Origin: Acidobacteriota bacterium
GTDB lineage: Bacteria > Actinomycetota > Acidimicrobiia > Acidimicrobiales > SHLQ01
NCBI GenBank assembly: GCA_022562835.1
Contig: JADFOM010000001.1
Coordinates: 1-33,563, forward strand
DNA: 33,563 nucleotides
Direction of reading: 5' to 3'
In this document: piece after piece, positions 5,069 through 30,415 of the stretch
How positions within the stretch are numbered: the stretch's first letter is position 1
Layout: the number at the start of each line of letters is the position of its first letter
Translations under genes and position numbers: made by a program
The notes under the pieces: model-generated
The model's database searches: none
The model's input: only the letters and a program-made list of their open reading frames with translations
Told to the model about the DNA's origin: nothing

Positions 5069-5556
5069 TGACCAAGCACCACACGATCGTTACGACCGTC
5101 GAAAACAAGCCCGGTGTGCTCGCTCGGGTCGCTGGCCTGTTCGCCCGCCGGGGATTCAACATCGAGTCGTTGGCGGTGGCGCCGACCGACGACGAGGCCT
5201 TCAGCCGCATCACTTTTGTGGTCGACGTCGAGTCTGCACCACTCGAACAAGTGGTCAAGCAGCTCGACAAGCTGATCAACGTCGTCGAAATCGTCGAACT
5301 CGATCCGACCGAATCAGTAGCGCTCGAGTTGCTCATGATCAAGATCGAGGCTCAGGACCCGAGCGGGCTCGCAGAGCTCATCGAGTCGTTCGAGGCGACG
5401 ATCTTGGAGGAGCGCGGCAATCACTTCCTAGTAACAATGACCGATGACTCGGTCCGATTGGACGATTTCGAAGAACGGCTGCGACCCTTTGGGATCGCAG
5501 AGGTGCAACGCACCGGAAAAGTTGCGTTGCGATCGCTCGACGCGCCCGAGCGCTGA
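5065..5556 (+). CDS. ilvN: Acetolactate synthase small (regulatory) subunit
   Basis: ACT-domain start HTIVTTVENKPGVLARVAGLFARRGFNIESLAV. The start overlaps the ilvB stop (GTGATG; GTG 5065 or ATG 5068). Confidence 0.9.
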   Translation: MMTKHHTIVTTVENKPGVLARVAGLFARRGFNIESLAVAPTDDEAFSRITFVVDVESAPLEQVVKQLDKLINVVEIVELDPTESVALELLMIKIEAQDPSGLAELIESFEATILEERGNHFLVTMTDDSVRLDDFEERLRPFGIAEVQRTGKVALRSLDAPER

Positions 5557-5622
5557 ACTAACCCACGAGCAAGAATCAACAACGACGCGTCCGCCGGACG
5601 GGTCCAAACCGAAAGGCACACC

Positions 5623-6654
5623 GTGGCGAACATCTACTATGAGGCCGACGCGGACCGATCCCACATCGCGAACCGAAAGGTGGCGATTCTCGGATATGGC
5701 TCGCAGGGCCACGCTCACGCACTCAACCTCAAGGAATCTGGCATCGACGTGCGGGTTGGTTTGCGCGAAGGTTCAGGTTCTGTCGCCAAGGCGTCCGCTG
5801 CCGGCCTAGCGGTGGCTTCGATCGCTGACGCCGTCGCGGAGGCCGACATCATCATGCTGCTTCTGCCCGACACCGAGCAGGCAGACATCTACAGCGAACA
5901 CATCGCCCCGAACCTCGAAGCCGGCAATGCGCTCGCATTCGCTCACGGCTTCAACATTCGGTTTGATCTGATCAATCCGCCCGAGGATGTCGACGTGATC
6001 ATGATCGCGCCTAAGGGCCCCGGTCACCTCGTGCGCCGCACCTACACAGAGGGTGGCGGCGTGCCATGTCTAATCGCGGTGGAAAACGACGCATCGGGCT
6101 CGGCCAAAGAGCTCGCGTTGGCCTATGCCGACGCGATCGGTGGGGCACGAGCCGGTGTCATAGAAACGACTTTCACCGAGGAATGTGAGACCGACTTGTT
6201 CGGCGAGCAGGTCGTGCTCTGTGGCGGGACGACATCGTTGGTTCAGAGTGCCTTCGAAACACTTGTCGCCGCCGGCTACCAGCCAGAGGTCGCTTACTTC
6301 GAGTGTCTCCACGAACTGAAGCTGATCGTCGATCTCATGTACGAACAGGGCATCGCGGGGATGCGTTACTCGATCTCGGACACCGCGGAGTACGGCGATC
6401 TCAGTCGGGGGCCGCGCATCATCGACGACAACGTTCGCGCCACGATGCGCCAGATCCTCACCGAAATTCAGGATGGCACCTTTGCCGAAGAGTGGGTCGC
6501 CGAATCCAAGGGTGGACGCAAGAACTTTCACCGGCTCGAGGAGGAGGGCCAGAAGCAACGCATCGAGGTCGTAGGAGCCGAGCTGCGCCGAATGATGCCG
6601 TGGATTGCGGAAGGCAAGCAGGATGTGCGCGAAGCCTCGGGCGGTCAGGGTTGA
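5623..6654 (+). CDS. ilvC: Ketol-acid reductoisomerase (class I)
   Basis: [21 protein letters not shown] Rossmann motif and the conserved ...FGEQ..LCGG... core. 343 aa, GTG start. Confidence 0.95.
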
Positions 6655-6671: not shown

Positions 6672-6746
6672 GAACCGGTGTCAGACACCCAGCGCAGTGC
6701 CGGTTTGGCGGGTGCGTTCTTTGCGCTGTGTGTCTGACACCGGTTC
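6672..6746 (+). terminator. Long perfect-arm hairpin after ilvC (U-tract-less terminator or REP-like element)
   Basis: GAACCGGTGTCAGACAC (6672-6688) is the exact reverse complement of 6730-6746. The stem extends through CAGCGCA/TGCGCTG (6690-6696 / 6722-6728) with one mismatch, giving about 25 bp. It starts 18 nt after the ilvC stop. Confidence 0.45.
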
Positions 6747-14521: not shown

Positions 14522-14579
14522 CCCGGCCTGGTTGCCACTAATTCCTACATTTGAACTCGGAACATGTCGATGGGTGGTG

Positions 14580-16196
14580 ATGGACGAGAAGTACGCAAGC
14601 GTCGAATCGGGTTCGGTCAGCGGTGGACCGCCGGGTCGCGTGGTGGCAGTCATCGTCGCAGCCGTTGGAGTGGCGGTACTGGCGTTCATCGGCTTTCGGG
14701 TCACCGGTGCGGCTAGTGGTTCGGCGGCCGGCGCCGACACTTCGTCCGAAGCGGTTACCGGACTGATGGGAGCGTTGTCCAGCGAGAACGTTATCGAGAT
14801 CTTCGCGCTGCTCCCGCCGAGCGAGGTTGGTCATGTCGTCGAGTTGTATGTGCCCGGCGTTGAGCTCGCACAAGAGTCTGAAGTAATCGTCTCGGACGAT
14901 CCACTCGCCGGTATCGATATCACGATTGAGGGCACGGTCACCCGTGTCGAGGAGCTGCACTCGGACATTCACCGGGTGTATCTCAGCAACGATGCGATCG
15001 TGCGGGTGGTTACCGATCCCACGAAGATGGATCCAGCGCTGGCCGAACAGGCCGAAGCATCCGTTGAGACCATAACGGCGCAGGAGCTGCTGGAGGAATT
15101 CAACGATCGTGACGATCCCGACCCGTTGTCCGAACTATTTGTAGTTGCCGTGCGCGAACGCGGTCAGTGGTTCGCCAGCCCGCTCTACACGACGATGGAA
15201 TACCTCCGCGAGTACTACGACGTCGATGTTCCGGACTTCGCGGCTTCTCGCGAAGTCGTCAATGTTGGCGCCGAGAGCCCGGAAGGTGTTCTCGAACAGT
15301 TTCTCGAGCCGATCGACGAACTGGACGAAACCGACGTCATCGAAGGGCTCGACCAGGCGATCGCTGGTCTCGAGGAAGGATCGGAAGCGGACTATATGGC
15401 TGATGTCGACTGGGAAACGTCGCTCATCGCTCCCGACGAGATCGACGTGTTCTTGGACTATGCACCAGTGTTCGCAGCCATCACCGAGGAAATTCAGATG
15501 TCGACCGACGAGATATTCGGGCCGATGGAAGCGATAGAAGTCGGGGAGGCGATTCCAGAGATGGAGGCTACGACCGACTATCGCGAAGACTGGAATGCGA
15601 TTCCTGAAGCCCCTCCGCCACCGTATGACTGCCCAAATCTGACTGCCCCCGATGGAACACCAGCGTGCGATCCCTGGACGGTCCCCGCCATCGAGGATCC
15701 CTACTTCGATGACGACTCGTATTACGACGACTTCTATTACGAGGAACCGCTCACGTTGACCGAGCAGCTCGAGGAGATGCGCAACGCGTTCGAAGAAGCG
15801 GACTACAAGGGAAACCTTGATATTGAGACCGAGACCATGGTCGAGTCGATGAGCGACGATCGGGCCAGGGTGAGCGTGACTGCAGCGCAGCTACGCGGCG
15901 AGCTGAGCTGGCAGGATCCGGGCATGCCGCGCTCGAGTGTTGTGCTCGACGCTGAGATCTATGACGGGATATGCGGACGGTACTCGTTCGTACAGACCGA
16001 CGTCGTGGAGTACGAGGGGGCGCCGCCGGAATCGTTCACGGAGTCGGCCGACGAGTGTCTGGAGATCCCTGGCGATCGCCCCGCTGGAGCGTTCATCATC
16101 ACCCGCGAGATCGACGGTCAGTGGTACTTCAGCCCAATCGAAACTATTATCGAATACGCGCGCTTCGCCATCGAGATCGCTTCCGCCGAGGACTGA
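14580..16196 (+). CDS. Hypothetical membrane-anchored, highly acidic protein with an internal duplication
   Basis: N-terminal TM helix VVAVIVAAVGVAVLAFIGF, then a long D/E-rich region. The motif GQW(F/Y)xSP(L/I)xT(T/I)(M/I)EYxR occurs twice (DNA ~15140-15215 and ~16089-16170). ATG 14580 is chosen; in-frame GTGs at 14574 and 14577 are possible. Confidence 0.6.
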   Translation: MDEKYASVESGSVSGGPPGRVVAVIVAAVGVAVLAFIGFRVTGAASGSAAGADTSSEAVTGLMGALSSENVIEIFALLPPSEVGHVVELYVPGVELAQESEVIVSDDPLAGIDITIEGTVTRVEELHSDIHRVYLSNDAIVRVVTDPTKMDPALAEQAEASVETITAQELLEEFNDRDDPDPLSELFVVAVRERGQWFASPLYTTMEYLREYYDVDVPDFAASREVVNVGAESPEGVLEQFLEPIDELDETDVIEGLDQAIAGLEEGSEADYMADVDWETSLIAPDEIDVFLDYAPVFAAITEEIQMSTDEIFGPMEAIEVGEAIPEMEATTDYREDWNAIPEAPPPPYDCPNLTAPDGTPACDPWTVPAIEDPYFDDDSYYDDFYYEEPLTLTEQLEEMRNAFEEADYKGNLDIETETMVESMSDDRARVSVTAAQLRGELSWQDPGMPRSSVVLDAEIYDGICGRYSFVQTDVVEYEGAPPESFTESADECLEIPGDRPAGAFIITREIDGQWYFSPIETIIEYARFAIEIASAED

Positions 16197-17425: not shown

Positions 17426-18241
17426 TTAGTCGAGCCAGTCGGGCCAGTCGTCGGTCAAGGTCATCTCCCACCGTGGGTCACGTTTCTCCATAAACGCCAC
17501 TACACCTTCGCGGGCATCGGGACCCGCCATCAGGTGATGATGGAGTTCGGTTTCGAGACGCTCGATCTCCTCTGATCGGCCCTCTGGGTCGCGCCACAGA
17601 AGACGCTTCGTGACGCCGACCGACACGGGTGCCGTGTTGGTCGCGATGTCGCGGGCGACGTCCAGCGCACGGTCGAGTACGGCGTCGGCGGGTAGGGCTT
17701 CGTTTGCCAGACCCCAATCGGCGGCCTCGACGCCACTGAACATTCGACCCGTCAATAGAATCTCCGCGGCCCGCGCATGCCCGATCAGGCGAGGCAAGCT
17801 CCAGTGAGCGCGGGCGTCGGGCATGACCCCCCGGCGGACCTGCACAATGCCGAGTTTCGCATCCTGCGCGACGTAGCGCAGATCACATTGCAGTGTCATC
17901 GTCAGCCCAATGCCGATCGCGTGCCCATTGATTGCTGCGATCACGGGTTTGCGGACATCCCACGCATGGAAGCGAAACGGGTCCGCCGAAAACGCCGGCT
18001 TGTCGTCGGTCTGGGTCGGCGCGGCAAACACAGAGGCACCATCGGAGAAGTCCGCGCCAGCACAAAAGGCGCGGCCCTGTCCGGTTAACACGACGACGCG
18101 AACATCGTCGTCGGTGTCGCATCGGGCCCAGGCGTCCTGTAGCTCAGCGGCCATCTCACCGCTGAATGCATTGAGCTTGTCGGGACGATCGAGCGTGATC
18201 GTCGCCACGCCGTTTGTCAGATCAAATCGGGTTGAACTCAT
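17426..18241 (-). CDS. Enoyl-CoA hydratase/isomerase (crotonase family)
   Basis: ITLDRPDKLNAF, VVVLTGQGRAFCAGADF and PVIAAINGHAIGIG motifs. 271 aa. Confidence 0.9.
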   Translation of the reverse strand: MSSTRFDLTNGVATITLDRPDKLNAFSGEMAAELQDAWARCDTDDDVRVVVLTGQGRAFCAGADFSDGASVFAAPTQTDDKPAFSADPFRFHAWDVRKPVIAAINGHAIGIGLTMTLQCDLRYVAQDAKLGIVQVRRGVMPDARAHWSLPRLIGHARAAEILLTGRMFSGVEAADWGLANEALPADAVLDRALDVARDIATNTAPVSVGVTKRLLWRDPEGRSEEIERLETELHHHLMAGPDAREGVVAFMEKRDPRWEMTLTDDWPDWLD

Positions 18242-18277
18242 CGTGCTTTCACCCTGTCACGAGAAACAGCTTCGAGC

Positions 18278-18979
18278 TCAACGCGGGTCGTCAACGACGC
18301 GACCGTCAAGGTCTGTGTCCTCGGCATTATCAGCGTCGATCATCCGCGCGCGCCGATGTATTCGCACGCGTCGAAACACGACGACCGCGAGAACTATCGC
18401 GATGTACTTGCCGTTGCCGCCTCGTTGGCTCAGCCAGCTGAAAAGGCTCGCACCGGCGATCACGTTGAGAAGAATCCCCGGAATGATGCCGAGGCCGGTG
18501 CCGATGAGAAATGGACGCCACCTCACCTTGGAAACTCCGAGAAGCCAGTCGGCGGGTGGCAACATGCCGGTGAACAGGCGAAGGAGGAACACCGGCCATA
18601 TCCGCTCGTTGTCGAAGCGGTCGTTCCAGCGGGCCATACGCGGAGGGATGTGTCGCTCTGCCCAGTCGCGACCGATCCAGCGTGCGAACGCGAAAGCGAT
18701 CGTGCTTGCGCCCATATTGCCGATCCAGCTCAACAAGACTGCTTGCGGCGTGGACCAGACCAGACCAGCGGGCACCATGAAGATCACTCCCGGCAAACCG
18801 ATCGGCTGGAACACCCACATGATTGCAACGAACACGACCGGACCCCATACGCCCGTCTCGGTCAGGAGCCGCTCGATCTCGTCGGGGTCGGTCCATCCGG
18901 CCTCATACGCCCATGCCAGCAGCCCGAGCCCAACCAGTACGACCACCGCAAGGATGAGCCCGCGGGACCGGTTGCTCAT
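18278..18979 (-). CDS. TVP38/TMEM64 (DedA/SNARE-associated) family membrane protein
   Basis: Multi-TM protein containing ...GLPGVIFMVPAGL...GASTIAFAFARWIGRDW.... ATG 18979-18977 overlaps the ATPase stop (ATGA). Confidence 0.8.
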   Translation of the reverse strand: MSNRSRGLILAVVVLVGLGLLAWAYEAGWTDPDEIERLLTETGVWGPVVFVAIMWVFQPIGLPGVIFMVPAGLVWSTPQAVLLSWIGNMGASTIAFAFARWIGRDWAERHIPPRMARWNDRFDNERIWPVFLLRLFTGMLPPADWLLGVSKVRWRPFLIGTGLGIIPGILLNVIAGASLFSWLSQRGGNGKYIAIVLAVVVFRRVRIHRRARMIDADNAEDTDLDGRVVDDPR

Positions 18980-21309
18980 GGCGCATTCGGTGAGAGGCGC
19001 CCGGTCAACCATGGCACCGCGATAACACCGAGTGAGCCGATGGCTGCGCCCGTGAGCACTATCGTCCAGGCCGCGGCGGGTAACCTCTCCAGCTCGAAAT
19101 AGTCGCGAAGCATCGGGATCGACGCAACCGCCGCGTAGCTAGCTCCCATCGCGACCACGAGACCAACCTTCCAAGTACGCAGAGGTCGAGCAACGACGAT
19201 CAGAATTGTCAGTGCGATCACGAGGAGGCAGATCGTTGCAGCGGTCCGAGCCTCCTCGATGCTGTAGTCACCGCGGCGGATGATCTCGAAGACGGTGACC
19301 GCAGCGGTTCCGGCGCAAGCGCCTGCCGGCAGCGAAAACCAGAGCGTCCGAGAAAGGAATCCGGGCCTCACCAGCTCGCTGTCAGGCGCGAGCGCCAGGA
19401 AGAAGCCAGGGATGCCGATGCTGAACGTGCCAATGAGTGTGAGCTGGCGTGGTAGGAACGGGAACGGCGAACCGATGATCACGATAATCAGGGTTATGAG
19501 AACGGCGTAGGTGGCCTTCGAGATGAAGAGGTTGGCGACCCGTTCAACGTTGTTGATGACCCTGCGACCCTCGCTCAATACGCGTGGGAGCGTCGAGAAC
19601 TTGTTGTCCAACAACACGAGCTGTGCAACGGCGCGGGTGGCCGACGAGCCCGAACCCATGGCGATGCCCATATCACTGTCCTTGAGCGCGAGGACGTCGT
19701 TTACGCCATCGCCGGTCATTGCTACGATGCGTCCATCGCGTTGCAGCGAGCCGACCATCGATCGCTTCTGATGAGGTGTCACACGACCAAATACGACCTC
19801 GCGTCGGACGATCTCATCGAACTCCTCACCCTCATCTGGCAGGGTCGTGGCGTCGTATCCGACGTCCGCGCCGGCAATCCCTGCTCGCCGCGCCACCGCC
19901 GCGACGGTGTCGGGATGATCGCCCGAAATTACGCGCAAATCGACTCCCTCCGCCGCGAAGAAAGCGAAGATCTCCGCGGCGTCGGGCTTGATCGTGTCCT
20001 CGAGCAGCACAAAGGCGATCGGATCTCGTCTTTTTGACAACTGACTCGAGTCGGCCGATGTCTCGCCGACAGCGCGAGCCAACAGAAGCACCCTGCGGCC
20101 CTCGCGTGCGTGTTCGAGCATGCGCACACGTTCGCCGTCGTCGTTGTCGTCAAAGAGAATGTCGGGAGCGCCAAGGTAGAAGGTGCCATGCCCCTCGAAA
20201 CTCGCAGAAGCCCACTTGCGGGCAGAACTAAATGGCACGATCTCGGTCGGGACCCAGCCGGGATCAGCGCAGACAGAGGCCACCGCTGCAAGCGAAGCGT
20301 TTGGATTTTGGTCGGCCGCTGCCATTGCACCTAGCGCGGCGTGAACGGTGGTTTCACTCGTGTCGCGGAGCGGCTCGATCCCGCCGAGAGATATCTCGCC
20401 GGTCGTGATGGTGCCCGTCTTGTCGAGACAGAGCGTGTTGACACGCGCCAGAAGTTCGACCGTGGCAAGTTCCTTCGCGAGCGCCTGATGGCGGGCGAGG
20501 ACGATGACACCCGCGATAAAGGCCAAGCTGGTGAGTAGCACCAACCCATCGGGGACCATCGCCACGGTCGCGGCAACCATTCCTTGTAGCGCGTCTTGCC
20601 ACTCGTCTTGCACGTTGAGCAGGCGGATCAACAACAAGATCGATACGGGAGGGATTATCACCATCAGCCAACGCATTATGACGTTGACACCTTGACGCAG
20701 TTCAGAATCGGCGAGTTGAAAGCGTCGAGCCTCCTCGGCGAGCGTGCTCGCGTAACTCTCCGCGCCGATTCGTTGAGCGCGCACGTGGCCCGAACCTGCC
20801 GCGACGAAAGAGCCCGACAGAACCTGGTCGCCGACATCTTTGAGCACGGCCTCGGCCTCGCCGGTCAGCAGCGACTCGTCGATCTCGAGGCCGACACCAT
20901 CTACCACCTCTCCGTCGACGACGATCTGATCACCGGTCTCGATGCTCAGCAGATCGTCTGCTACGACCTCGCTCAGGGCGACCTCACTCTCGGCACCGTC
21001 GCGTAGAACCCGCGCCTTTGGTGCCGACAACACCGTGAGGTTGTGCAGCGTTTTGCGCGCCCTGAGCTCCTGGCTGATGCCGATGACGCTGTTGGAGATG
21101 ACGACACCTACAAAGAGTCCGTCCTCGGGGTATCCGGCGATCAGAATCAGGACGAACAGCGTCGACATGATCGCGTTGACCGGTGTGAAAACGTTGGCCC
21201 GCAGGATTTGAGGGAGGGTGCGCACGGGCGCGTCGGGTACGTTGTTGACGCGCCCGTCGGCGACCCGTTCGGCAACCTCCGCGGCGCTGAGGCCGGTGGC
21301 GAGGCTCAC
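18976..21309 (-). CDS. Cation-translocating P-type ATPase (no N-terminal metal-binding domain; CtpE-like / P2-like)
   Basis: LTGEAE actuator motif, phosphorylation site CLDKTGTITTGE, hinge MTGDGVNDVLALK and TM4 VPDGL. 777 aa. The GTG start overlaps the Nudix stop (GTGA). Confidence 0.9.
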   Translation of the reverse strand: MSLATGLSAAEVAERVADGRVNNVPDAPVRTLPQILRANVFTPVNAIMSTLFVLILIAGYPEDGLFVGVVISNSVIGISQELRARKTLHNLTVLSAPKARVLRDGAESEVALSEVVADDLLSIETGDQIVVDGEVVDGVGLEIDESLLTGEAEAVLKDVGDQVLSGSFVAAGSGHVRAQRIGAESYASTLAEEARRFQLADSELRQGVNVIMRWLMVIIPPVSILLLIRLLNVQDEWQDALQGMVAATVAMVPDGLVLLTSLAFIAGVIVLARHQALAKELATVELLARVNTLCLDKTGTITTGEISLGGIEPLRDTSETTVHAALGAMAAADQNPNASLAAVASVCADPGWVPTEIVPFSSARKWASASFEGHGTFYLGAPDILFDDNDDGERVRMLEHAREGRRVLLLARAVGETSADSSQLSKRRDPIAFVLLEDTIKPDAAEIFAFFAAEGVDLRVISGDHPDTVAAVARRAGIAGADVGYDATTLPDEGEEFDEIVRREVVFGRVTPHQKRSMVGSLQRDGRIVAMTGDGVNDVLALKDSDMGIAMGSGSSATRAVAQLVLLDNKFSTLPRVLSEGRRVINNVERVANLFISKATYAVLITLIIVIIGSPFPFLPRQLTLIGTFSIGIPGFFLALAPDSELVRPGFLSRTLWFSLPAGACAGTAAVTVFEIIRRGDYSIEEARTAATICLLVIALTILIVVARPLRTWKVGLVVAMGASYAAVASIPMLRDYFELERLPAAAWTIVLTGAAIGSLGVIAVPWLTGRLSPNAP

Positions 21310-22037
21310 CCCGACTCCGACTGTTCGAAGTGGTATCGGTCACCGTACATGCGGAGCCGATGACGGGGCCCGGGCATGTGCGGGTCGTTGGTGTCGTATC
21401 CGGCATCGCCATGCCACATGGCAACCGGTCCATCTGAGTCGAGGCCGATGTGTGTCTCGTAGAACGCGGGCTCGATGTGATGAGCCCACTCCAGAAACGA
21501 CGACACAGTGTCGTGTTGCGATAGATGGTGAAGTGTTACCCACGTCGGCGGCGCCAACTCGATCTCCGCTCGATCGCGCCGTTCGAGTGCATCCAAAGGA
21601 GCCATCCACTCGGCGTCGTAGATCTCGCCGCCGTCGATCTCAACAACATCGGTGGTTGTTTCGGCCGCAAAAAAGAAGGTGGTGAACCGTTTGGGTGCGA
21701 CCGGTGGTGGGGTCCAGTGGGCAAACCACTCGAGTTGAGCAGCGTCGACGCCGATATCGGTTTCTTCGCGGGTCTCGCGCACCGCTGCGACACGCGCCGC
21801 GCGTTCGAGGTCACCGTCGTCGTCGTGGTAGTCCTCGAGATCGAGTCGTCCCCCCGGAAACACCCACATGCCACCGAACGTGATCTTCGAGTTCTTCCTG
21901 AGCATCAGTGTCTCGAGCTGACCCTGCCGTTCACTGACCAACACCAAGGTGGCGGCGGGTATCGCTGGAGTGTCACCTCGCGCGGCGGCGTCGCGCGCCC
22001 ATTTGGCGAAACGATCTCGATCTCGATGGGTTGTCAT
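21306..22037 (-). CDS. Nudix hydrolase
   Basis: Nudix box GGMWVFPGGRLDLED...AAVRETREETDI (Gx5Ex7REUxEExGU pattern). 243 aa. Confidence 0.8.
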   Translation of the reverse strand: MTTHRDRDRFAKWARDAAARGDTPAIPAATLVLVSERQGQLETLMLRKNSKITFGGMWVFPGGRLDLEDYHDDDGDLERAARVAAVRETREETDIGVDAAQLEWFAHWTPPPVAPKRFTTFFFAAETTTDVVEIDGGEIYDAEWMAPLDALERRDRAEIELAPPTWVTLHHLSQHDTVSSFLEWAHHIEPAFYETHIGLDSDGPVAMWHGDAGYDTNDPHMPGPRHRLRMYGDRYHFEQSESG

Positions 22038-22108
22038 TGGGCGCTATGCAATCACACCAGCGGGTGAAAAGGGGTACTGTCCGGACGGATTCGCCTACAA
22101 CAGGAGAT

Positions 22109-23788
22109 GTGTTGCAGACCGATGGCTTGTTAGAAGAGGTGCGTGCCGAACTTACCGGGCCCGGTGGGATGTTCGAGATCGGCACCGAAGAGGTGCGCGG
22201 TGAGCCGAGATCTGTCTGGGCTGGTCGCAGACGCAACCTCAACGAGCTGGTGGAGGGCTGTGCCAACCACGGCGACGCCGAGTTCCTTGTTCTAGGTGAC
22301 GTGCGCATTACCCATGCCGATTTTCTCAGACGAACAAACGCTCTGGCGCGCCGGCTGCGTGACGATTACGCCGTCTCGCCTGGTGACAGGGTCGCGATCT
22401 TCGCGGCGAACCGGCCGGAGTGGGTGATTACGTTCTATGCGGTTGCTCGTATAGGCGGCATCGTTGTTGCGATGAACGGGTGGTGGACCCGCGATGAGGC
22501 GGTCTATGGCCTCGATCTCGTGGACCCTGTTCTTTTGGTCGGTGATGCTAAGCGTCTCGCGCGGCTCGATGGGTTCGACCACGGCGCGGTCACACTCGAC
22601 CTCGACGAGGGTTTCGCCGAATTGATGGAAGGTGATGGCCCAGCGCCGCCGGTGAACCCGGCTGAGGACGATCCGGCCCTCATTCTTTTCACGAGTGGTA
22701 CCACGGGTCGTCCCAAGGGGGCCTTGATCTCGCATCGTGGGTTGATCGGATTCATAGACGGAATGATCTACCGCGGTGCCGAGGCTGCTTTCGTGAAGGC
22801 GCGCACCCACCCAGATTCGTTGAGCGCTCCACGTTCGCAGTTGATCACCCTCGCGACATCGCCGCTGTTTCATGTCTCCGGGCTCTTTGGTTCGACCCTT
22901 ATCGGTACGTCGGTCGGGTCAAAGCTGGTCTTTAGGAGCGGAAAGTTCGACGCTGACGAGGTGCTGGCATTGATCGAGGCTGAACGGGTGACGAGCTGGG
23001 GGGCGCTCGGGTCGATGGGTCCGCTCGTCGCACAGGCCGCGGCTGAATCGACCCGCGATCTTTCGAGCATCACAGGCATCGGATTCGGGGGAGCTCCTGT
23101 ATCGGAGACCGTGCAGAATCGTCTTCGAGAGGCCTTTCCGAACGCGGCGGCAAACTTCGGCATGGGTTACGGATCGAGTGAATCGGTTGCCGTCATCACA
23201 TCGATATCCGGAGCCGAGATGGTCGAACGGCCGGACTCATGCGGCACGGTCAACCCAACCTTCGACGTCGAGACACGTGACGATGATGGCAATGTGCTGC
23301 CCGAGGGCGCCGAGGGCGAGATCTTTGTGCGCAGCGCCTACACGATGCTCGGCTACTGGCGAAACGAGGAAGCGACCGCCTCGACCCTCATCGACGGCTG
23401 GCTGTCGACCGGTGACATCGGTCGCTTCGAAGATGGATATCTTTACATCAACTCTCGGGCACGGGACATGATCCTGCGCGCCGCTGAGAACATCTACCCG
23501 GTCGAGATCGAGCACCGGATCGAAGCGCACCCCGACGTAGCGGAGTGCGCCGTGCTGGGTGTCGATCACGCGACGCTTGGACAGGAGGTCTGCGCGGTCG
23601 TCGTGTTGAAGGGATCGGCTTCACTCGACGAGTCGGCAATGGGTACTTGGGTCGCCGAGACACTTGCTGGATTCAAAGTTCCGAGCGTCTGGCGTCAGCG
23701 AGACGAGCCCCTGCCGCGCAACGCGGCAGGCAAGGTCGTCAAGGATGTCTTGACCGGCGACCGTTCGCTCGATCAGATCGAGGAGTAG
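22109..23788 (+). CDS. Acyl-CoA synthetase / AMP-dependent ligase (FadD-like)
   Basis: AMP-binding motif LILFTSGTTGRPKGAL, plus YGSSE, TGDIGR and a C-terminal ..PRNAAGKV. The start is uncertain: GTG 22109 or TTG 22112 after CAGGAG. The 22031 start would overlap the divergent Nudix gene. Confidence 0.85.
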   Translation: MLQTDGLLEEVRAELTGPGGMFEIGTEEVRGEPRSVWAGRRRNLNELVEGCANHGDAEFLVLGDVRITHADFLRRTNALARRLRDDYAVSPGDRVAIFAANRPEWVITFYAVARIGGIVVAMNGWWTRDEAVYGLDLVDPVLLVGDAKRLARLDGFDHGAVTLDLDEGFAELMEGDGPAPPVNPAEDDPALILFTSGTTGRPKGALISHRGLIGFIDGMIYRGAEAAFVKARTHPDSLSAPRSQLITLATSPLFHVSGLFGSTLIGTSVGSKLVFRSGKFDADEVLALIEAERVTSWGALGSMGPLVAQAAAESTRDLSSITGIGFGGAPVSETVQNRLREAFPNAAANFGMGYGSSESVAVITSISGAEMVERPDSCGTVNPTFDVETRDDDGNVLPEGAEGEIFVRSAYTMLGYWRNEEATASTLIDGWLSTGDIGRFEDGYLYINSRARDMILRAAENIYPVEIEHRIEAHPDVAECAVLGVDHATLGQEVCAVVVLKGSASLDESAMGTWVAETLAGFKVPSVWRQRDEPLPRNAAGKVVKDVLTGDRSLDQIEE

Positions 23789-24102
23789 GGAGAGGCTGTT
23801 GCGTCGGCGACGATGACATCGTCGAGCAGCATCGAGGCGCGCAACGAACCGTCGGCATGAGCACTGATTGACAGCTCGTAACGCCGATCGATCGGCACAG
23901 CCTTGCGAAGACGAATATCAAGATTGTGACCAGAGCTGCCCGAGGCGTTGGTGAAGGCCAGCTCGAAGGCTTCGCGCACCGCACTGACAGAAGCGAAACC
24001 GAACCCGGTCGAGTGGGTGGGACGGGCAACCCAGTACTCGGTGTGGCTACTACCCATGAGGCACTGTAGGCCTGCGGCGAGACCTCGTCTGTGAGCGGGC
24101 AC
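23773..24102 (-). CDS. Hypothetical small protein (doubtful)
   Basis: Only open frame in the 23789-24172 gap with protein-like composition (…YELSISAHADGSLRASMLLDDVIV…). A 22-codon sample gave about 50% third-position GC, lower than neighbours by eye. It overlaps the fadD-like 3' end by 16 nt. No family recognised. Confidence 0.25.
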   Translation of the reverse strand: MPAHRRGLAAGLQCLMGSSHTEYWVARPTHSTGFGFASVSAVREAFELAFTNASGSSGHNLDIRLRKAVPIDRRYELSISAHADGSLRASMLLDDVIVADATASPYSSI

Positions 24103-24172
24103 GACTTCCTCTGCACCGTCGATGCGCTGCAGACGTGTGCCCTACGCCGCAATCTCCCCCATACTGGACGTC

Positions 24173-26275
24173 ATGAAAGCGTTCGTGGGATTGAAATGGG
24201 TACGTGTCGGTGCATTCGCGTTGGTTCTGATCGGTGTCGCCGCGTTGGTCACCAAGGATCAATGGGATTGGTTTTTCGAGCCCGACGATGCGCAGACGAC
24301 CGGTGTGTCCGCACCCACAATCGACGATGTCGGCGACAGCGAGCGGCTATACCGGATCTCGCCCGGCGCCGACTCGTCGGTGACCTACACGGTGCAGGAG
24401 CGCCTCGCCGGAACCTCCAAGAGTGCTTCGGGAACGACCGATGTGCTCGCTGGCGACATCGTCGTGAACCTCGAGGATCCGAGCCTGAGTCGGGTAGGTA
24501 CGATCGTCGTGAATGTCGAGATGTTCGAGTCGGATTCGCGTCTGCGCGATAAGCGAATCCGTCATGACTTCCTCGAGTCAACTCACTTTCCGTTCGCGAC
24601 ATTCGAAATGACCGAGGTCGAGGGGCTTCCCGACGCTGCAACCGACGGTAGGCCATCTGCGCTCACCATCACCGGCGATCTCACACTCAAGGAAACGACC
24701 GCACCTGTGACCTTCACCGGGCAGGCGACAATGGATGAGGACAAGCTGTCCGCGACCATGTCGACCACCCTATTGATGTCGGAGTTCGATATTGGACCCA
24801 TCAATATTGCCGGCCTGGTCCACACGTCCAATGAGATCGAAATGGACTTTGTGCTCGAGGCAGACCGCGTCGCGCTCGACAGTGCCGCCCCCGACGAGTC
24901 CGAACTGGCCGTTGCACCCTCACTTCCCGAACACGGAGAGGGGAATTTCTCCGAGGGCGTCCAGCCCATCCTCGAGGCGCGCTGCGTGAGTTGTCACACC
25001 ACCGTCGACGGACCGGGTTCGAGCACCTGGGCGCTCGATACCGCTGGCGACGCTGCCGAGATCGCCGAGGACATCGCGTTGGTCACCCAGTCCAGGTACA
25101 TGCCGCCTTGGCCGGCGTCGGACATGAGCCTCAAGTTCGAACACGACTATTCGCTCACCGGCGAGCAGGTCACCACCATTGCGCAGTGGGCTGAGTCCGG
25201 CGGCGGGCTCGACGTACCACCGGACACCAAACTTGAGGCGGGCGACGATTTGTTCGAACCGATCCAACGTGATCAGGTCGTCCCGCCGGCCGATCCCTAC
25301 ATTGGCAGTCTCGATCGTCCCGACGATTATCGGTGTCAGGTCCATGAGATCGCCGACCCCGAAGGTAATGGCACCTGGCTCAAGGGTATTGCGTTCGAAC
25401 CTGACGCGACCGAGATTGTGCACCACTCCATCATCTACCGCGTGCCGGAGTCGGGCCGAGCCGAGGTAGAGCGTCTCGACGGTGCTGACGGGAGTCCCGG
25501 CTGGACCTGTTTCGGACTGTCCAATCTGCAATCGCCTGGCGTCGGGTCCATCGGCGGATGGGCACCAGGTCAGCAACCGACGGTCTACCCCGACGGTGTA
25601 GGTCTCTATCTGGCCCCAGGCGACCTGATCGTCAATCAGATTCACTATCACTACGACGACTCGACGCCACCGGATTCCTCAGAGCTCGTGTTCGACACGA
25701 TTAGTGAAGCCGAGATCTCTGCTTCGGGCGAGACGATGCGTTCCATCAGGGGTCGTTCCTATCTGACGCCGGCCGAGGGTCCATGTACCCCCGAAGAGGT
25801 CGGACCGCTGTGCGATCGCGACGCGGTGCTCGACGACATCGACCAAAAGTACGGTGGCGTCGCTCGCTACATACCGAATTTTGTGTTGGGCAGATGTGGG
25901 GGCACGGTCGACGACTATGACGACCTTGATGGTTCGGTGTTCTACAGCGCGTGCGAATTGCCAGCTGGCGATTTCGGCAAGCTACGGTCGGTGCTCGGCC
26001 ATATGCACGAATTTGGTAAGGCCTACCGGATGACCCTCAATCCAGGAACGCCCGACGAGCGGATCTTGCTCGACATTCCGACCTGGAGCTTCGAGTGGCA
26101 GCTCTACTATGTGCCGACTGAGGACATAACGATCAAGCCCGGAGACTCTTATCTGTTCGAGTGTTGGTGGGACCGCTCACTTGTGTACATGGAGGAACCG
26201 CGTTACATAACGTGGAACGAGGGCACCGTCGATGAGATGTGCTTTTCCGGCGTGAGCGTCGTCCCAGAGAAGTAG
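24173..26275 (+). CDS. Membrane-anchored fusion: YceI-like domain + CxxCH (heme c) motif region + copper type II ascorbate-dependent monooxygenase (PHM/DBH-like) domains
   Basis: TM helix VGAFALVLIGVAALV. YceI-like region SSVTYTVQERLAG...SDSRLRDKRI.HDFLES..FP.ATF...ITGDLTLKE.TAPVTF. CVSCH lies at 24983-24997. The CuH-type ligands are HH (EIVHHSIIY) and H (NQIHYHY). The CuM-type ligands are HxH (GHMHEFGK) and Met (DEMCF). Confidence 0.8.
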   Translation: MKAFVGLKWVRVGAFALVLIGVAALVTKDQWDWFFEPDDAQTTGVSAPTIDDVGDSERLYRISPGADSSVTYTVQERLAGTSKSASGTTDVLAGDIVVNLEDPSLSRVGTIVVNVEMFESDSRLRDKRIRHDFLESTHFPFATFEMTEVEGLPDAATDGRPSALTITGDLTLKETTAPVTFTGQATMDEDKLSATMSTTLLMSEFDIGPINIAGLVHTSNEIEMDFVLEADRVALDSAAPDESELAVAPSLPEHGEGNFSEGVQPILEARCVSCHTTVDGPGSSTWALDTAGDAAEIAEDIALVTQSRYMPPWPASDMSLKFEHDYSLTGEQVTTIAQWAESGGGLDVPPDTKLEAGDDLFEPIQRDQVVPPADPYIGSLDRPDDYRCQVHEIADPEGNGTWLKGIAFEPDATEIVHHSIIYRVPESGRAEVERLDGADGSPGWTCFGLSNLQSPGVGSIGGWAPGQQPTVYPDGVGLYLAPGDLIVNQIHYHYDDSTPPDSSELVFDTISEAEISASGETMRSIRGRSYLTPAEGPCTPEEVGPLCDRDAVLDDIDQKYGGVARYIPNFVLGRCGGTVDDYDDLDGSVFYSACELPAGDFGKLRSVLGHMHEFGKAYRMTLNPGTPDERILLDIPTWSFEWQLYYVPTEDITIKPGDSYLFECWWDRSLVYMEEPRYITWNEGTVDEMCFSGVSVVPEK

Positions 26276-26351
26276 TTAGGGAACTTTCACAAGTTCGGCT
26301 GGTTACGCGCGATAATTAAGAAGGCCGAAACACGACTGCGAGGTTCCCACG

Positions 26352-27617
26352 ATGTCGATCGATACGAGATCTCGTCTGCGATGCGAGGTTCGCCCGCTCA
26401 CAACCGACGAGGTTTTCGATGAGTTGTTGCCAGCAGCTATCGCGCTGTGCGGAACGCTGGCCGGTCGCGGGATCGAATATCAGGAACTGCCACCGCTCGG
26501 CCTCGACGTCGATGGCCGCTCCGTCACTCTCTCCGCGCGCAACGGTGCTGCCTACATCGAGACGGGCCTCGACGATGCGGGCGTGATCGCCGAGCTCGAA
26601 GGTGAGGCGCTGTCCAATTTGGTCCAAGACGTGCAGACGACAATGGGTCTTGCCATGACGTCGCGTGCGAAGGTTACGAGTGGATCGCTCGATGACTGGA
26701 TCGCATGGGAACCAGCCCTGCGAGCACTATTGGACGGTCGGGCGGTGCACGAGGCCGGCGACGTCGAGATGTTTGACCGCGACGGTGACCCACTCGACCT
26801 CACACGGTCGTTCGGTCCCGACGATGACCGCGACGAGATCGCACATTTCATAGAGCAGGCCGGGTTCTTGCACCTTCGCGATGTCTTTGGCGAGGGTGAG
26901 ATGGCGGCGGTCGACGCAGACATCGAATCGAGTCTTGCGGAGGCGGTGGACGGCGACGACGGCTACTGGTGGGCAACAAACGGTAGCGGCGAGACCCTGC
27001 CGGTGCGCGTGTTGTGGTTCCACGAGCGTTCCGAGACCTTGCGCGAACTGCTGTCCGATTCTCGCCTGCAATGGCTTGCCGAACTAACTGGAGACGACCA
27101 CAACGGCGACAACCTGGGGGCCGAGGGTCTCATCAAACCGCTCGACATAGTGAATGGATTGTCCGACCTTCCATGGCACAAGGACTGCGGGCAGGGAGGC
27201 CATTCCTATCAATGCAGCGGGATGACCGTTGGCATCTCGGTGACCGGCGCGGATCGGCTCAGCGGTGCGCTTGGGGTGATACCGGGCTCACATCGGGCGA
27301 ACACAGTCCCGTTCATGCGTGACCGCAAGCTCGACTTGCAGCCAATCATGCTGGAAACCCGCACGGGCGATGTGACGGTGCACTGCAGCGACACGTTGCA
27401 TCGGGCCCACCCACCGATAGAGCAACCCCGCAAGGTCGTCTATTCGGGATTTAGATTGAACCCTCGAGACGAGGACCGCTTCGATGCGCCGTCGACCGAA
27501 ACAGTTCGGGCGGCACGCTCGGCCTTGACAGATGTGCGTGACCGCATCGAAGCGGCCGACAATTCTGATAATGACCGGCGATTCAAGGCAGACATCTCCG
27601 GGGTCAAGTCTCACTAA
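26352..27617 (+). CDS. Phytanoyl-CoA dioxygenase (PhyH) family Fe(II)/2-oxoglutarate oxygenase with an N-terminal extension (possibly SCP2-like)
   Basis: The C-terminal half carries LPWHKDCG (HxD) and ...TVHCSDTLHRAHPP (distal His). The first ~150 aa resemble a sterol-carrier-type lipid-binding domain, which is inference only. The last 5 codons and the stop lie inside the left inverted repeat. Confidence 0.75.
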   Translation: MSIDTRSRLRCEVRPLTTDEVFDELLPAAIALCGTLAGRGIEYQELPPLGLDVDGRSVTLSARNGAAYIETGLDDAGVIAELEGEALSNLVQDVQTTMGLAMTSRAKVTSGSLDDWIAWEPALRALLDGRAVHEAGDVEMFDRDGDPLDLTRSFGPDDDRDEIAHFIEQAGFLHLRDVFGEGEMAAVDADIESSLAEAVDGDDGYWWATNGSGETLPVRVLWFHERSETLRELLSDSRLQWLAELTGDDHNGDNLGAEGLIKPLDIVNGLSDLPWHKDCGQGGHSYQCSGMTVGISVTGADRLSGALGVIPGSHRANTVPFMRDRKLDLQPIMLETRTGDVTVHCSDTLHRAHPPIEQPRKVVYSGFRLNPRDEDRFDAPSTETVRAARSALTDVRDRIEAADNSDNDRRFKADISGVKSH

Positions 27618-27642
27618 CTACTAACTACAACTAACTGGGTCA
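27600..27642. repeat. Left arm of a 36-bp perfect (43-bp, one mismatch) inverted repeat with stops in all six frames
   Basis: GGGGTCAAGTCTCACTAACTACTAACTACAACTAAC (27600-27635) is the exact reverse complement of 28841-28876. TAA occurs at 27615, 27622 and 27632, one per frame. The complementary strand carries TAG/TGA in all three frames. Confidence 0.95.
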
Positions 27643-27650
27643 AGGCTTCG

Positions 27651-28784
27651 CTAGGTGGGAGCGACGGCCTCGAGAGAATCGAACCCGTAGGGCAAATACA
27701 GTCCTGCCGAGAGGTTCTCATGCATGCCGTACCCGATGCGCCCATCGTCGGTCTCATGGCGACAGAGCGTTTCGTTGAGCCAGGCAATCTCGAGCCGATC
27801 GGTGGGCTCACCGACCTCGATGACAACCCCCTCGACCTTTTCCTGCTCGCCTTGCCAGACACCGTGGCCCCAGTACCCGTCGTAAATATATCCAGATCCG
27901 GCCTTGAGGTAGACGGTCCGCAACGGTGTGGTCTTGATGCGTAGGTCTGAGGCCCCGTCGCCGCTGAACCACAGTTCCGCTCGCGCTACTTCACGCGTTC
28001 CAGCATGGTATTCGATGTCGATTTCTGGTCGACCAAGCTGTTCAGGCGGCCGTTCGTCGCCCAGGTTGTAGAGGAGTACGGCCTCCTCGAGGATCCGGCG
28101 ACCAGCGTGATCGTTATCGATCGTGATCTTGACCATGTGGTCGTCGAATTGGATGGGTAGCCAGTTGTGAAAGAACCCCATCGGTGCGTCCGGTGCACGT
28201 TTTGCTCCGATGCCTTTGGGTTCAGGTTCACCGATGCCGTGACGTATTCCCCAGCTGTGGTCTCTGGCGCCAGCCCAACGGCCGGGGGAAACTTCGCGCC
28301 GCTCGCCATCGATCTCGATCCAGCCGCTGTAGTTGCCTACGTGGGCGAGGCGGTAGGTCTCCTGCGTGACTCTCGAGCCAACCCGTGACCAGGATTTTGG
28401 CTCGGGCAGGGCCTCGGTGCTGGCTGTGAATGTGACGTCGAGTGCGATTCCCCATTCGTTAGGTTCACACACAAGTCGCAGCGATCGTAGGCCTTCGATG
28501 ACCTCGACGCGAAGCGGTCCTACAGCTGTATCCATGCGGTCCGCTCCCAACTCGCGTGAGGCCCGCACAGTTGTTTGAACCTCACCGTGCGAAACGCTGA
28601 CGAACGCGTCCGTCACTCCCAGATTGGGGTACTGGCCCATTCCGAAAACCATAAACAACGAGTCATCCGACGCGTGCATGTTGAAGTAGTAGCGGTCATA
28701 GAAGTGGCGATCGCTGGTGCCGACCGTGTCGATCGGTTCGGGTATCTGATGTATGAGGTAGTCATCCGCCGTGCTGAGTGGCAT
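27651..28784 (-). CDS. Conserved-looking hypothetical protein (377 aa), family not recognised
   Basis: Long ORF with gene-like composition. ATG 28784 is preceded by AAAGGA 7 nt upstream. Notable motifs are FYDRYYFN and GARDHSWGIRHG. It is the only gene between the two repeat arms and is antisense to both flanking genes. Confidence 0.7.
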   Translation of the reverse strand: MPLSTADDYLIHQIPEPIDTVGTSDRHFYDRYYFNMHASDDSLFMVFGMGQYPNLGVTDAFVSVSHGEVQTTVRASRELGADRMDTAVGPLRVEVIEGLRSLRLVCEPNEWGIALDVTFTASTEALPEPKSWSRVGSRVTQETYRLAHVGNYSGWIEIDGERREVSPGRWAGARDHSWGIRHGIGEPEPKGIGAKRAPDAPMGFFHNWLPIQFDDHMVKITIDNDHAGRRILEEAVLLYNLGDERPPEQLGRPEIDIEYHAGTREVARAELWFSGDGASDLRIKTTPLRTVYLKAGSGYIYDGYWGHGVWQGEQEKVEGVVIEVGEPTDRLEIAWLNETLCRHETDDGRIGYGMHENLSAGLYLPYGFDSLEAVAPT

Positions 28785-28833
28785 GGCACGTCCTTTCGGT
28801 CTGGGGTCAAAGCATTGCACGATCAACGGGGTC

Positions 28834-28876
28834 TGACCCCGTTAGTTGTAGTTAGTAGTTAGTGAGACTTGACCCC
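28834..28876. repeat. Right arm of the inverted repeat
   Basis: GTTAGTTGTAGTTAGTAGTTAGTGAGACTTGACCCC (28841-28876) is the exact reverse complement of 27600-27635. The preceding TGACCCC (28834-28840) matches 27636-27642 with one mismatch. Confidence 0.95.
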
Positions 28877-28894
28877 ATTGATGCGCGAATATGC

Positions 28895-30415
28895 ATGTAT
28901 ATGGTTGAAACCCCTTGGACAGGCGATGCGTGCTCACTTGTTGACGCGTTTCGCGCAGGCGATAGATCACCGATCGAAGAACTCGAGGCGACGCTCGCAG
29001 CAATCGAGGCATCCGAGCTGAACTGTTTCTCGTATCTCGACTTCGAACGCGCAAGGGAGACAGCGGCCTCGGCTGATGTGAGTCTGCCGTTCGGCGGACT
29101 GCCGATGGGTATCAAGGAACTCGAGCCTGTCAAGGACTGGCCCTGGACCGAGGCATCACTCGTCTTTGCCGACCGCGTCTCAGATCACGACGGCACGATC
29201 ATGTCGCGCCTGCGCGCAGGCGGAATCGTCCCCGTGGGCCAAACAACCGCGAGCGAATTCGGCGGGCTCAACGTCAGCGTCACCAAGATCAACGGGGTGA
29301 CGGGAAACCCATGGGACCCGTCACGTTCAGCGGGCGGGTCTTCGGGCGGAAGCGCTGCAGCAGTGGTTGGTGGACTCGTACCGCTGGCCAGCGGAGGCGA
29401 CGGCGGAGGATCGATTCGGATCCCCGCCGGCTACAACGGCCTATTGGGAATGAAGGGAACCTACGGGAGAATCCCTCGAGGTCCGCACACTCAGATAGCA
29501 CCGTTGACAGTGGTGCTAGGTTGCCTAGCCCGTTCGGTGCGCGATGCTGCCCGCTTCTATGACGTCTGCGCCGGATATCACCCAGCGGACCCAACGAGCC
29601 TTCCTGATGTCGACGGCTGGGAATCGAATCTTGGAAGTCACGATCTGAAGGGCCGCACCGTAGTCGTCGATCCCACTCTTGGTGGGGTGGTGGTCGATCC
29701 GAAATCCCAGAAGGTGGTGCTCGAGGCAGCTGAGGCCCTGATCGCAGAATTGGGCCTCAAACGAATTGAGTCGCCGGTGACGATGCCACGTCTCGGAGCG
29801 ATGTGGATGATGGGCAACGTCACAACGTTGCTAAATGACCTTGGCGATCTCTGGCCGCGCTGCGCGGAGGACTTGACCGACGAGGTGCGGGTCGGACTGC
29901 AACTCACCGACGCGCTGTACAACCTGCGTGTCGCGTCGGCAGGTGAGGCAGACAGGACCGCGATGAACGACACGATGGGTGAGATGTTCGCGGCCGCCGA
30001 CTTCGTGATCACATCGACGAACCCCGGGCCTGCGTTTTCAGCAGAAAACCCGATGAGCAGCGACGAAAAATCTTTCATCGACTACGCAAAGGGCGGCCGG
30101 GTGACCCGGTTGGGGTTCAGAGCCGCGATGAAGACAGCGAGCATGGCCGCCGGTGTCGCCCCGAAACTGCCCAACGCACTGGTTCGCCTCGCCACGTCGC
30201 GTGCCGAACATTTGCTCGACATGGGAGCGTTGACCATTCCGGCGAACATCGCAGGAAATCCGGCGGTGTCGATTCCTGCCGGGCAGGTCGATGGACTTCC
30301 AGTCGGCATGCAGGTGATTGGACGCCATCACTGCGATGCCGTGTTGTTCGATGTTGCTCTCGCCGCGGAGCGCAGTCGTCCGTGGCCGTTGGTTGTGCCG
30401 AACGCTCCCGCGTGA
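28895..30415 (+). CDS. Amidase (amidase-signature family, GatA/FAAH-like)
   Basis: AS signature GGSSGGSAAAVVGGLVPLASGGDGGGSIRIPA and an upstream GIKE lysine region. ATG 28895 or 28901 is the likely start. The GTG 28862 start in the ORF track lies inside the repeat arm. Confidence 0.9.
   Translation: MYMVETPWTGDACSLVDAFRAGDRSPIEELEATLAAIEASELNCFSYLDFERARETAASADVSLPFGGLPMGIKELEPVKDWPWTEASLVFADRVSDHDGTIMSRLRAGGIVPVGQTTASEFGGLNVSVTKINGVTGNPWDPSRSAGGSSGGSAAAVVGGLVPLASGGDGGGSIRIPAGYNGLLGMKGTYGRIPRGPHTQIAPLTVVLGCLARSVRDAARFYDVCAGYHPADPTSLPDVDGWESNLGSHDLKGRTVVVDPTLGGVVVDPKSQKVVLEAAEALIAELGLKRIESPVTMPRLGAMWMMGNVTTLLNDLGDLWPRCAEDLTDEVRVGLQLTDALYNLRVASAGEADRTAMNDTMGEMFAAADFVITSTNPGPAFSAENPMSSDEKSFIDYAKGGRVTRLGFRAAMKTASMAAGVAPKLPNALVRLATSRAEHLLDMGALTIPANIAGNPAVSIPAGQVDGLPVGMQVIGRHHCDAVLFDVALAAERSRPWPLVVPNAPA

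Follow-up and report, generated by a model that had tools for sequence, protein, structure and literature searches.

The window analysed here, a stretch of 33,563 nucleotides (JADFOM010000001.1) that is one entire contig of a metagenome-assembled genome (MAG) held at NCBI, carries a minus-strand gene of the Rv3169 family, here called gene X, between a plus-strand PhyH-family dioxygenase gene and a plus-strand amidase gene. Gene X is bracketed by a perfect 36-bp inverted repeat with stop codons in all six frames. We find that the two arms of this bracket are most probably two inverted copies of a dispersed repeat of about 57 nt, native to a clade of Acidimicrobiales, REP-like (REP, repetitive extragenic palindromic) and associated with a Y1/HUH transposase. 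We class the element as a REP-like repeat family associated with a transposase of the TIRYT type, TIRYTs being akin to RAYTs (REP-associated tyrosine transposases); lacking a GT[AG]G head and measuring about 57 nt, it falls outside the canonical REP definition. The features of the locus are as follows.

26276-28900, no strand assigned: variable block (PhyH gene, left copy, gene X and right copy) with the conserved YceI-like gene on one side and the amidase gene on the other, from the synteny comparison.
26352-27617, plus strand: PhyH-family dioxygenase gene (Pfam PF05721).
27595-27650, minus strand: left copy of the ~57-nt element (family nhmmer profile, 55 bits, E 1e-15; aligned with eight other copies).
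27651-28784, minus strand: gene X, 377 aa, Rv3169-family conserved protein of unknown function (NCBIfam NF053593 Rv3169_fam, 403 bits against a cutoff of 150).
28827-28882, plus strand: right copy of the ~57-nt element (family nhmmer profile, 63.6 bits, E 2e-18).
28901-30415, plus strand: amidase gene (Pfam PF01425; 83% identical orthologue P0248 in OZ244202).

The repeat was established both by sequence reading and with a repeat finder. GGGGTCAAGTCTCACTAACTACTAACTACAACTAAC occupies positions 27600-27635 and its exact reverse complement positions 28841-28876; the match reaches 43 nt with one mismatch, and the repeat finder extends it to 50 nt at 92% identity (27593-27642 and 28834-28883, with a spacer of 1191 nt). 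At up to three mismatches the 36-mer occurs twice in the window, once in either arm, and not at all in 100 shuffles. Stops are found in each arm in every frame (3/3) of either strand, a property of 0.4% of the window's 56-mers and 0.015% of its 22-mers. On these points the preliminary description of the stretch, made from its letters alone, was accurate, as it was in taking the minus-strand frame at 27651-28784 for the sole credible gene of the enclosed segment, which the open reading frames (ORFs) bear out.

The two copies differ in their hairpin modules. The left copy contains the perfect arm 27600-27635, and at its outer end GGGGTCAAGTCTCAC-TAA supplies the five final codons of PhyH (GVKSH) and the stop, the PhyH ORF ending at 27617 as had been described. 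Its inner hairpin module is degenerate (CGAAGCCTTGACCCA), and as single-stranded DNA the copy has lost the hairpin (0 kcal/mol). The right copy contains the perfect arm 28841-28876 and lies between the starts of X (28784) and of the amidase gene (28901). Its module is intact (AACGGGGTC-T-GACCCCGTT at 28825-28843), its single strand folds into an 8-bp hairpin (-8.4 kcal/mol, z -3.7), and hairpin and T-rich tail together give a terminator-like match on the plus strand, so that a role as a terminator is conceivable. Homology to a 504-aa orthologue of 83% identity places the amidase start at ATG 28901 and not at GTG 28862. The whole right arm therefore falls in intergenic sequence, and 17 bp separate its end from the amidase start downstream. 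No Rfam family was matched at E<=1 over 27300-29200, and a sigma-70 promoter scan of 27450-29000 found none. An extra GGGGTCA motif at 28803-28809, 25 bp inside the right-arm hairpin, is not significant alone.

The evidence that the arms belong to a dispersed family comes from two relatives. A degenerate pattern, TGACCCNGTTAGN{15,30}GACTTGACCC, built from the positions common to the two window copies and a copy in the related contig L010, matches five loci (0.016, 0.67, 1.18, 2.40 and 3.28 Mb) in OZ244202, the complete 4.45-Mb chromosome of an Acidimicrobiales MAG. Nine copies are thus known: six in OZ244202 (two of them at the 2.40-Mb locus, L014), two in the window and one in L010. The pattern being strict, these numbers are a lower bound (at least six copies in the 4.45-Mb genome); the nhmmer profile found no further copies in the remainder of the window or within the 40 kb surrounding those of OZ244202. 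The element comprises the hairpin GGGGTC-T-GACCCC, GTTAGTTGTAGTT, eight variable nucleotides (AGTAGTTA in the window type) and GTGAGACTTGACCCC (GTTAG), and the nine-copy consensus, (C)GGGGTC-T-GACCCC GTTAGTTGTAGTT N8 GTGAGACTTGACCCC (GTTAGTTG), spans 58 aligned columns. The dispersed OZ244202 copies, megabases apart, are identical at 52-55 of these 58 positions (about 90-95%), and near-identity of two copies within one genome, as in the window, is therefore normal for the family. The forward strand is stop-rich in the whole family, six-frame stops being confined to the window lineage and L010. A match to the pattern in a Chloroflexota MAG (L015) was set aside as chance, as it has no stop-rich core. 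The pattern also picked up a group of related units in a Legionella MAG, described further below.

In L010, which is 79% identical to the window in nucleotides (87% for X and 86% for PhyH in amino acids), X is convergent with PhyH and a diverged copy of the arm lies between them, matching at 22 of 29 core positions. This copy is preceded by the perfect palindrome CTAACGGGGTC-T-GACCCCGTTAG. The same palindrome sits on the inner side of the window's right arm, and each arm is thus built of TGACCCC, a 29-nt stop-rich core and TGACCCC again. In L010, the 92 bp upstream of X contain no second arm, and the apparent end of a co-directional gene lies 17-27 bp upstream of X.

The copies lie at gene ends. 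Twelve of the 18 copy flanks are gene 3' ends, located inside the element or at most 5 nt away. They include the 3' ends of PhyH and X in the window, of both L010 genes and of the transposase gene described below, and others belong to luciferase-like, acyl-CoA dehydrogenase, NT5C, PaaX, amidohydrolase, permease and esterase genes. Every ORF adjoining the nine copies has a Pfam domain, gene X itself, which has no Pfam match, being placed by its NCBIfam family. The consequence for the protein can be read at PhyH: its homologues usually end 3-4 residues past FKA(N/D), and the window protein ends FKADISGVKSH-stop. The L010 PhyH ends FKADITNGVKSQT-stop, with tail and stop contributed by the element as in the window.

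The link to a transposase is provided by L014. There, inverted copies at 4830-4884 and 5866-5920 (55 nt, 85%) bracket a 981-bp segment with a single gene (ORF 4847-5830, 327 aa), which extends 12 codons into its downstream copy. The protein matches Pfam Y1_Tnp (IS200-like) with an E of 9e-12 and has a C-terminal Bac_DnaA_C-like helix-turn-helix (HTH; E 1e-3). Its best NCBIfam match is REP_Tyr_transpos (REP-associated tyrosine transposase), at 78.2 bits, below the cutoff of 80; a PDB sequence search gave no match, and tblastn of the protein against the 33.5-kb window found nothing. GGGGTCAG, an instance of the motif GGGGWSAS, is present in the hairpin module of seven of the nine aligned copies, the window's right copy included, and the outer end of the element, GGGGTCAA, has one mismatch to GGGGWSAS. 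Gene X, an Rv3169-family protein, is not a transposase, and neither transposase nor recombinase domains were found when the window's main ORFs, which encode metabolic and regulatory proteins, were scanned with Pfam. The earlier statement that the window has no such gene holds for these ORFs, two of which (14532-16196 and 17910-19025) matched no Pfam family.

The presumption for repeats of this class is that a single-copy Y1/HUH tyrosine transposase of the RAYT or TIRYT type copies them in trans, and enzymes of this type act on single-stranded DNA hairpins. By analogy with the literature on these families, the present element would be mobilised in this way. Its copies are located at the borders of genes, for the most part at 3' ends or across them, where the stop-rich sequence closes any incoming reading frame. 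This accounts for the all-frame stops of the arms and the five borrowed PhyH codons. Of the two window copies, the one at X/PhyH would be the old one, since a diverged copy is present in L010; the X/amidase copy was not seen in L010 and lies at the edge of the block that differs from OZ244202. The bracket around X would then be a by-product of two repeat copies, fixed in one orientation, with no dedicated inversion or cassette device.

A number of observations weigh against this account. No Y1 transposase was found in the 33.5-kb window, the part of the genome that was searched, so that a cognate enzyme in this organism is only putative. Only two copies are present in these 33.5 kb and both touch gene X, a clustering above chance for a low-copy family. 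Between the arms, 0 of 36 core positions differ, against about 5 of 14 changes in the left hairpin module; such uneven divergence points to exchange or selection between the arms, and the account leaves it unexplained. It likewise leaves unexplained the clustering on one gene and the position of the right copy at a synteny breakpoint. For TIRYT-type repeats, to our knowledge, no experiment has ever shown transposition, and the copy number of the family is known as a lower bound only.

The synteny breakpoint suggests a further reading, which is compatible with a dispersed-repeat origin of the arms and to which we give a modest chance: the right copy may be a rearrangement junction, dispersed copies having provided the homology for a recombination that placed PhyH and X, instead of a sulfatase gene, beside the amidase gene. 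The window is colinear with a stretch of OZ244202 (L021) over about 9 kb in all, 18677-26275 corresponding to L021 1-8452 and 28901-30415 to L021 10001-11515, with no similarity between window 26276-28900 and L021 8453-10000. Between the YceI-like (YceI/Cu-monooxygenase-like) gene and the amidase gene, OZ244202 thus has a sulfatase gene, the place of which is taken in the window by PhyH and X with their left and right copies. Similarity to OZ244202 begins again exactly at the amidase start, 17 bp from the right copy's outer end, and the window and L010 are unlike each other upstream of X, both as expected of a junction. The other edge of the block carries a weak element-like 17-mer (26271-26287, AGTAGTTAGGGA-ACTT), which fits the same reading; however, its score places it no higher than the top 0.7% of window tiles, it is not significant alone, overlaps the stop codon of the YceI-like gene and may be chance, and we do not count it as a third, degenerate copy. 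It counts against the reading that neither a donor site nor the reciprocal junction is available.

Because the amidases are 83% identical and about 9 kb are colinear, OZ244202 is a true relative of the window organism. The synteny stops directly after the amidase gene (30416 onward). The NCBI label of the window reads 'Acidobacteria bacterium', whereas the close homologues of X, PhyH and the amidase, and the ~9 kb of colinear sequence, are all from Acidimicrobiales; on this sequence evidence the label is probably wrong.

Gene X together with its two arms could instead be a non-autonomous derivative of a TIRtron, the unit formed by a TIRYT gene and its flanking repeats, with a passenger gene in the transposase slot; a TIRYT gene at another site could then provide for movement of the unit in trans. 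This we regard as unlikely. The geometry is that of the L014 transposase unit, with the hairpin ends inward, the 5' end of the gene 35-43 bp from the plus-strand copy and its 3' end abutting or overlapping the minus-strand copy. Moreover, homologues of X are found in very different neighbourhoods (1965 homologues in varied genomic contexts), and the block with PhyH and X is missing from the syntenic OZ244202 site. Against this, the X/PhyH junction of L010 has one copy only, with the apparent co-directional gene end immediately upstream of X, and the X homologues of about 80% identity (L001-L003) have neither flanking repeats nor synteny with PhyH or the amidase. The neighbourhoods of PhyH homologues of 65% identity (L008, L009) were likewise without synteny. 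In addition, the hairpin of the left copy is destroyed, PhyH is part of the variable block although it is not enclosed by the arms, and hairpins on opposite strands are ill-suited to single-strand excision by a Y1 enzyme, as inferred from the IS200/IS605 mechanism. We also consider it improbable that arm, X and arm form a transposase-less TIRtron, an ordinary gene occupying the Y1 slot and copied or moved in trans by a TIRYT, or, in a variant, that the whole block of PhyH and X was moved by the same enzyme between same-strand copies; if true, this would mean that REP-type domesticated transposases can shuttle cargo genes. Of the cargo-carrying non-autonomous element that the preliminary description had offered as one option, the repeats stand, since the arms are non-autonomous dispersed repeats linked to a Y1 transposase in a relative, and the cargo is not supported, given the single arm in L010 and the armless X homologues elsewhere. 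A mobile cargo cassette is unlikely.

That the arms are recombination substrates, between which the segment inverts by RecA-dependent exchange over the 36-43-bp tracts or through an invertase encoded elsewhere, flipping X between an antisense and an operon arrangement, is a very unlikely reading, although the 36-bp identity is perfect, all ORF ends would be preserved, and identical cores beside a diverged hairpin are compatible with conversion between arms. Orientation was examined in contigs of near-identical strains from four other assemblies, made with SPAdes and MEGAHIT (k=141). L007 (99.2% identity) covers PhyH, the left arm and the 3' end of X; L011 and L012 (99%) run from the amidase side through the right arm and X into the left arm; L013 (MEGAHIT k141, 98.7%) spans both arms and their outer flanks. 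All are in the window orientation. One orientation is thus seen in all junction-informative contigs (at least four assemblies) and in L010, as evidence from assemblies, not reads, in which a minority orientation could escape. L013 has a single-nucleotide polymorphism (SNP) in the left arm and none in the right, so the arms are not kept identical. The left arm lacks the family hairpin, the scanned ORFs of the window yielded no recombinase domain, and the arms are ordinary members of a family whose copies are this similar even megabases apart. The preliminary description had proposed comparing the orientation of X in relatives, and had looked to many related genomes with one fixed orientation and a diverged repeat as the observation that would speak against recombining arms. 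One relative, L010, provides it in part, with X and PhyH convergent as in the window, a diverged repeat and no flipped arrangement; nor does its orientation show any sign of a past inversion. An invertible switch is thus unsupported, no evidence for it having been seen. As a side observation, bases 1-23 of L011 and L012 (CGCCGCCGGCGCCGGAAAACCGG) mismatch the window beyond 28972, in the amidase N-terminus, either because strains differ there or as an artefact of the contig ends.

An assembly artefact or an engineered stop-linker cassette is extremely improbable and is effectively excluded: all-frame stop linkers do occur in synthetic constructs and several short contigs break near the arms, but both junctions are reproduced, with SNPs relative to the window, in the four other assemblies from other samples and assemblers, a diverged orthologous copy is present in L010, related copies recur in a complete MAG chromosome, and the single match among PLSDB plasmids (22 nt, E 0.1, in a Dietzia oxidoreductase coding sequence) was judged to be chance. 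Searches with parts of the element gave no match of the exact 36-mer in genome contigs, no match of an 18-mer of the outer end in viral contigs, and three matches of the 22-nt core in metagenome contigs, each of them in AT-rich sequence of low complexity that has no relation to the element.

Several further observations concern this or similar repeats. An extra tandem half-unit, TGACCCCGTTAGT directly repeated, is present at L014 4816-4842 and L019 6939-6965, so the outer motif can be duplicated. A contig of a Legionella MAG (L018, JASJHH010000182.1; 36% GC) carries at 100-320 four close units AATAGACTTGACCCCGTTAGTT plus the inverted GGGGGTCAAGTCT, which have a 19-mer in common with the outer end of the Acidimicrobiales element; the 19-mer may be a TIRYT-type recognition motif conserved across phyla, or the contig may be mis-binned. 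The window also contains, at 6672-6746, a hairpin doublet with 25-nt arms (96% complementary), a 25-nt spacer and the head GGTGTCAGACACC, located between an ilvC-like gene and a Cys/Met pyridoxal-phosphate-enzyme gene. In OZ244202 the same head, GGTGTCAGGCACCGAGC, is found in doublets at L021 3444-3558 and 4140-4263, on either side of another Y1 transposase-like ORF. This ORF is shorter, has 42% identity to the L014 protein and may be disrupted. The clade thus seems to have a second family of REPIN/RAYT type. Contig L022, reached through the 48-aa cluster member P0245, has no similarity to the window and was a dead end.

If the bracket around X is read as two copies of a dispersed repeat, a striking perfect inverted repeat with six-frame stops around an antisense gene is explained by a known mechanism class, and this result should prevent the locus from being labelled a switch or contamination in annotations. 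A repeat family with a Y1 transposase link is also documented for Acidimicrobiales, where REP/RAYT work has so far centred on Proteobacteria, and it adds to the TIRYT-associated, REP-like repeats, a known but little-studied kind. The family illustrates how a stop-rich repeat that lands on gene 3' ends gives them tails and stop codons, and the X locus is a concrete case for the question whether repeat pairs mobilise or rearrange neighbouring genes.

Among known systems, integron attC sites were considered and rejected. An attC consists of one imperfect palindrome beside its cassette, whereas arms are present on both sides here, and the core sites do not fit. With invertons the locus shares inverted repeats around a segment whose inversion would alter gene orientation; unlike invertons, it is seen in one orientation, has no invertase nearby, and its repeats are members of a dispersed family, not dedicated sites. 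IS200/IS605 elements and palindrome-associated transposable elements (PATEs) resemble it in the Y1/HUH enzyme that recognises DNA hairpins and in the small derivatives without a transposase gene. The ends of IS200/IS605, however, are not inverted repeats and have their hairpins on the same strand, while the window copies are inverted; with the hairpins on opposite strands, the bracketed gene is not expected to be excised as one single strand.

The likeness to REP/RAYT systems and REPINs (PMC2817692; PMC3116915) is closer. These too are short, hairpin-bearing extragenic repeats found mostly downstream of genes, with a single-copy Y1 transposase gene between two inverted copies and high similarity between copies within one genome, and a RAYT gene bracketed by inverted REP copies is the REPtron layout (Nunvar 2010, PMC2817692). 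The element departs from REPs in that CTAACGGGGTC-T-GACCCCGTTAG has no 5' GT[AG]G head, GTAG being present only 3', inside GTTGTAGTT; in its unit of about 57 nt against 20-40 nt for REP; and in a known copy number (at least six, by the strict pattern) far under the usual >100 per genome. It departs from REPINs in that the window's inverted pair lies 1.2 kb apart around a gene, against a doublet spanning about 100 bp (PMC3116915). The first RAYT survey found no homologues outside Proteobacteria (PMC2817692), and the Acidimicrobiales family is absent from the literature found on TIRYT.

The closest fit is to TIRYTs and TIRtrons, RAYT-like genes lying between long TIRs (terminal inverted repeats) with a common GGGGWSAS (Di Nocera et al. 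2013, PMC3733652). TIRYTs fall mostly in TnpA-Y1 subclass 2.1, defined by HTH or Bac_DnaA_C C-termini (Quentin et al. 2018, PMC6006769), and some of their TIRs form dispersed families of moderate abundance (PMC3733652). The present element differs in that the window pair brackets an Rv3169-family gene and not a transposase gene, in its short perfect palindrome and second half-site, and in the six-frame stops specific to the window lineage and L010. It agrees with TIRtrons in what OZ244202 displays: a Y1/HUH transposase with a DnaA-C-like HTH between two long inverted GGGGWSAS repeats (GGGGTCAG), more copies scattered through the chromosome as a family of moderate size, and a repeat that overlaps the 3' end of the transposase gene, the arrangement designated '3'ov' in TIRYTs (PMC3733652).

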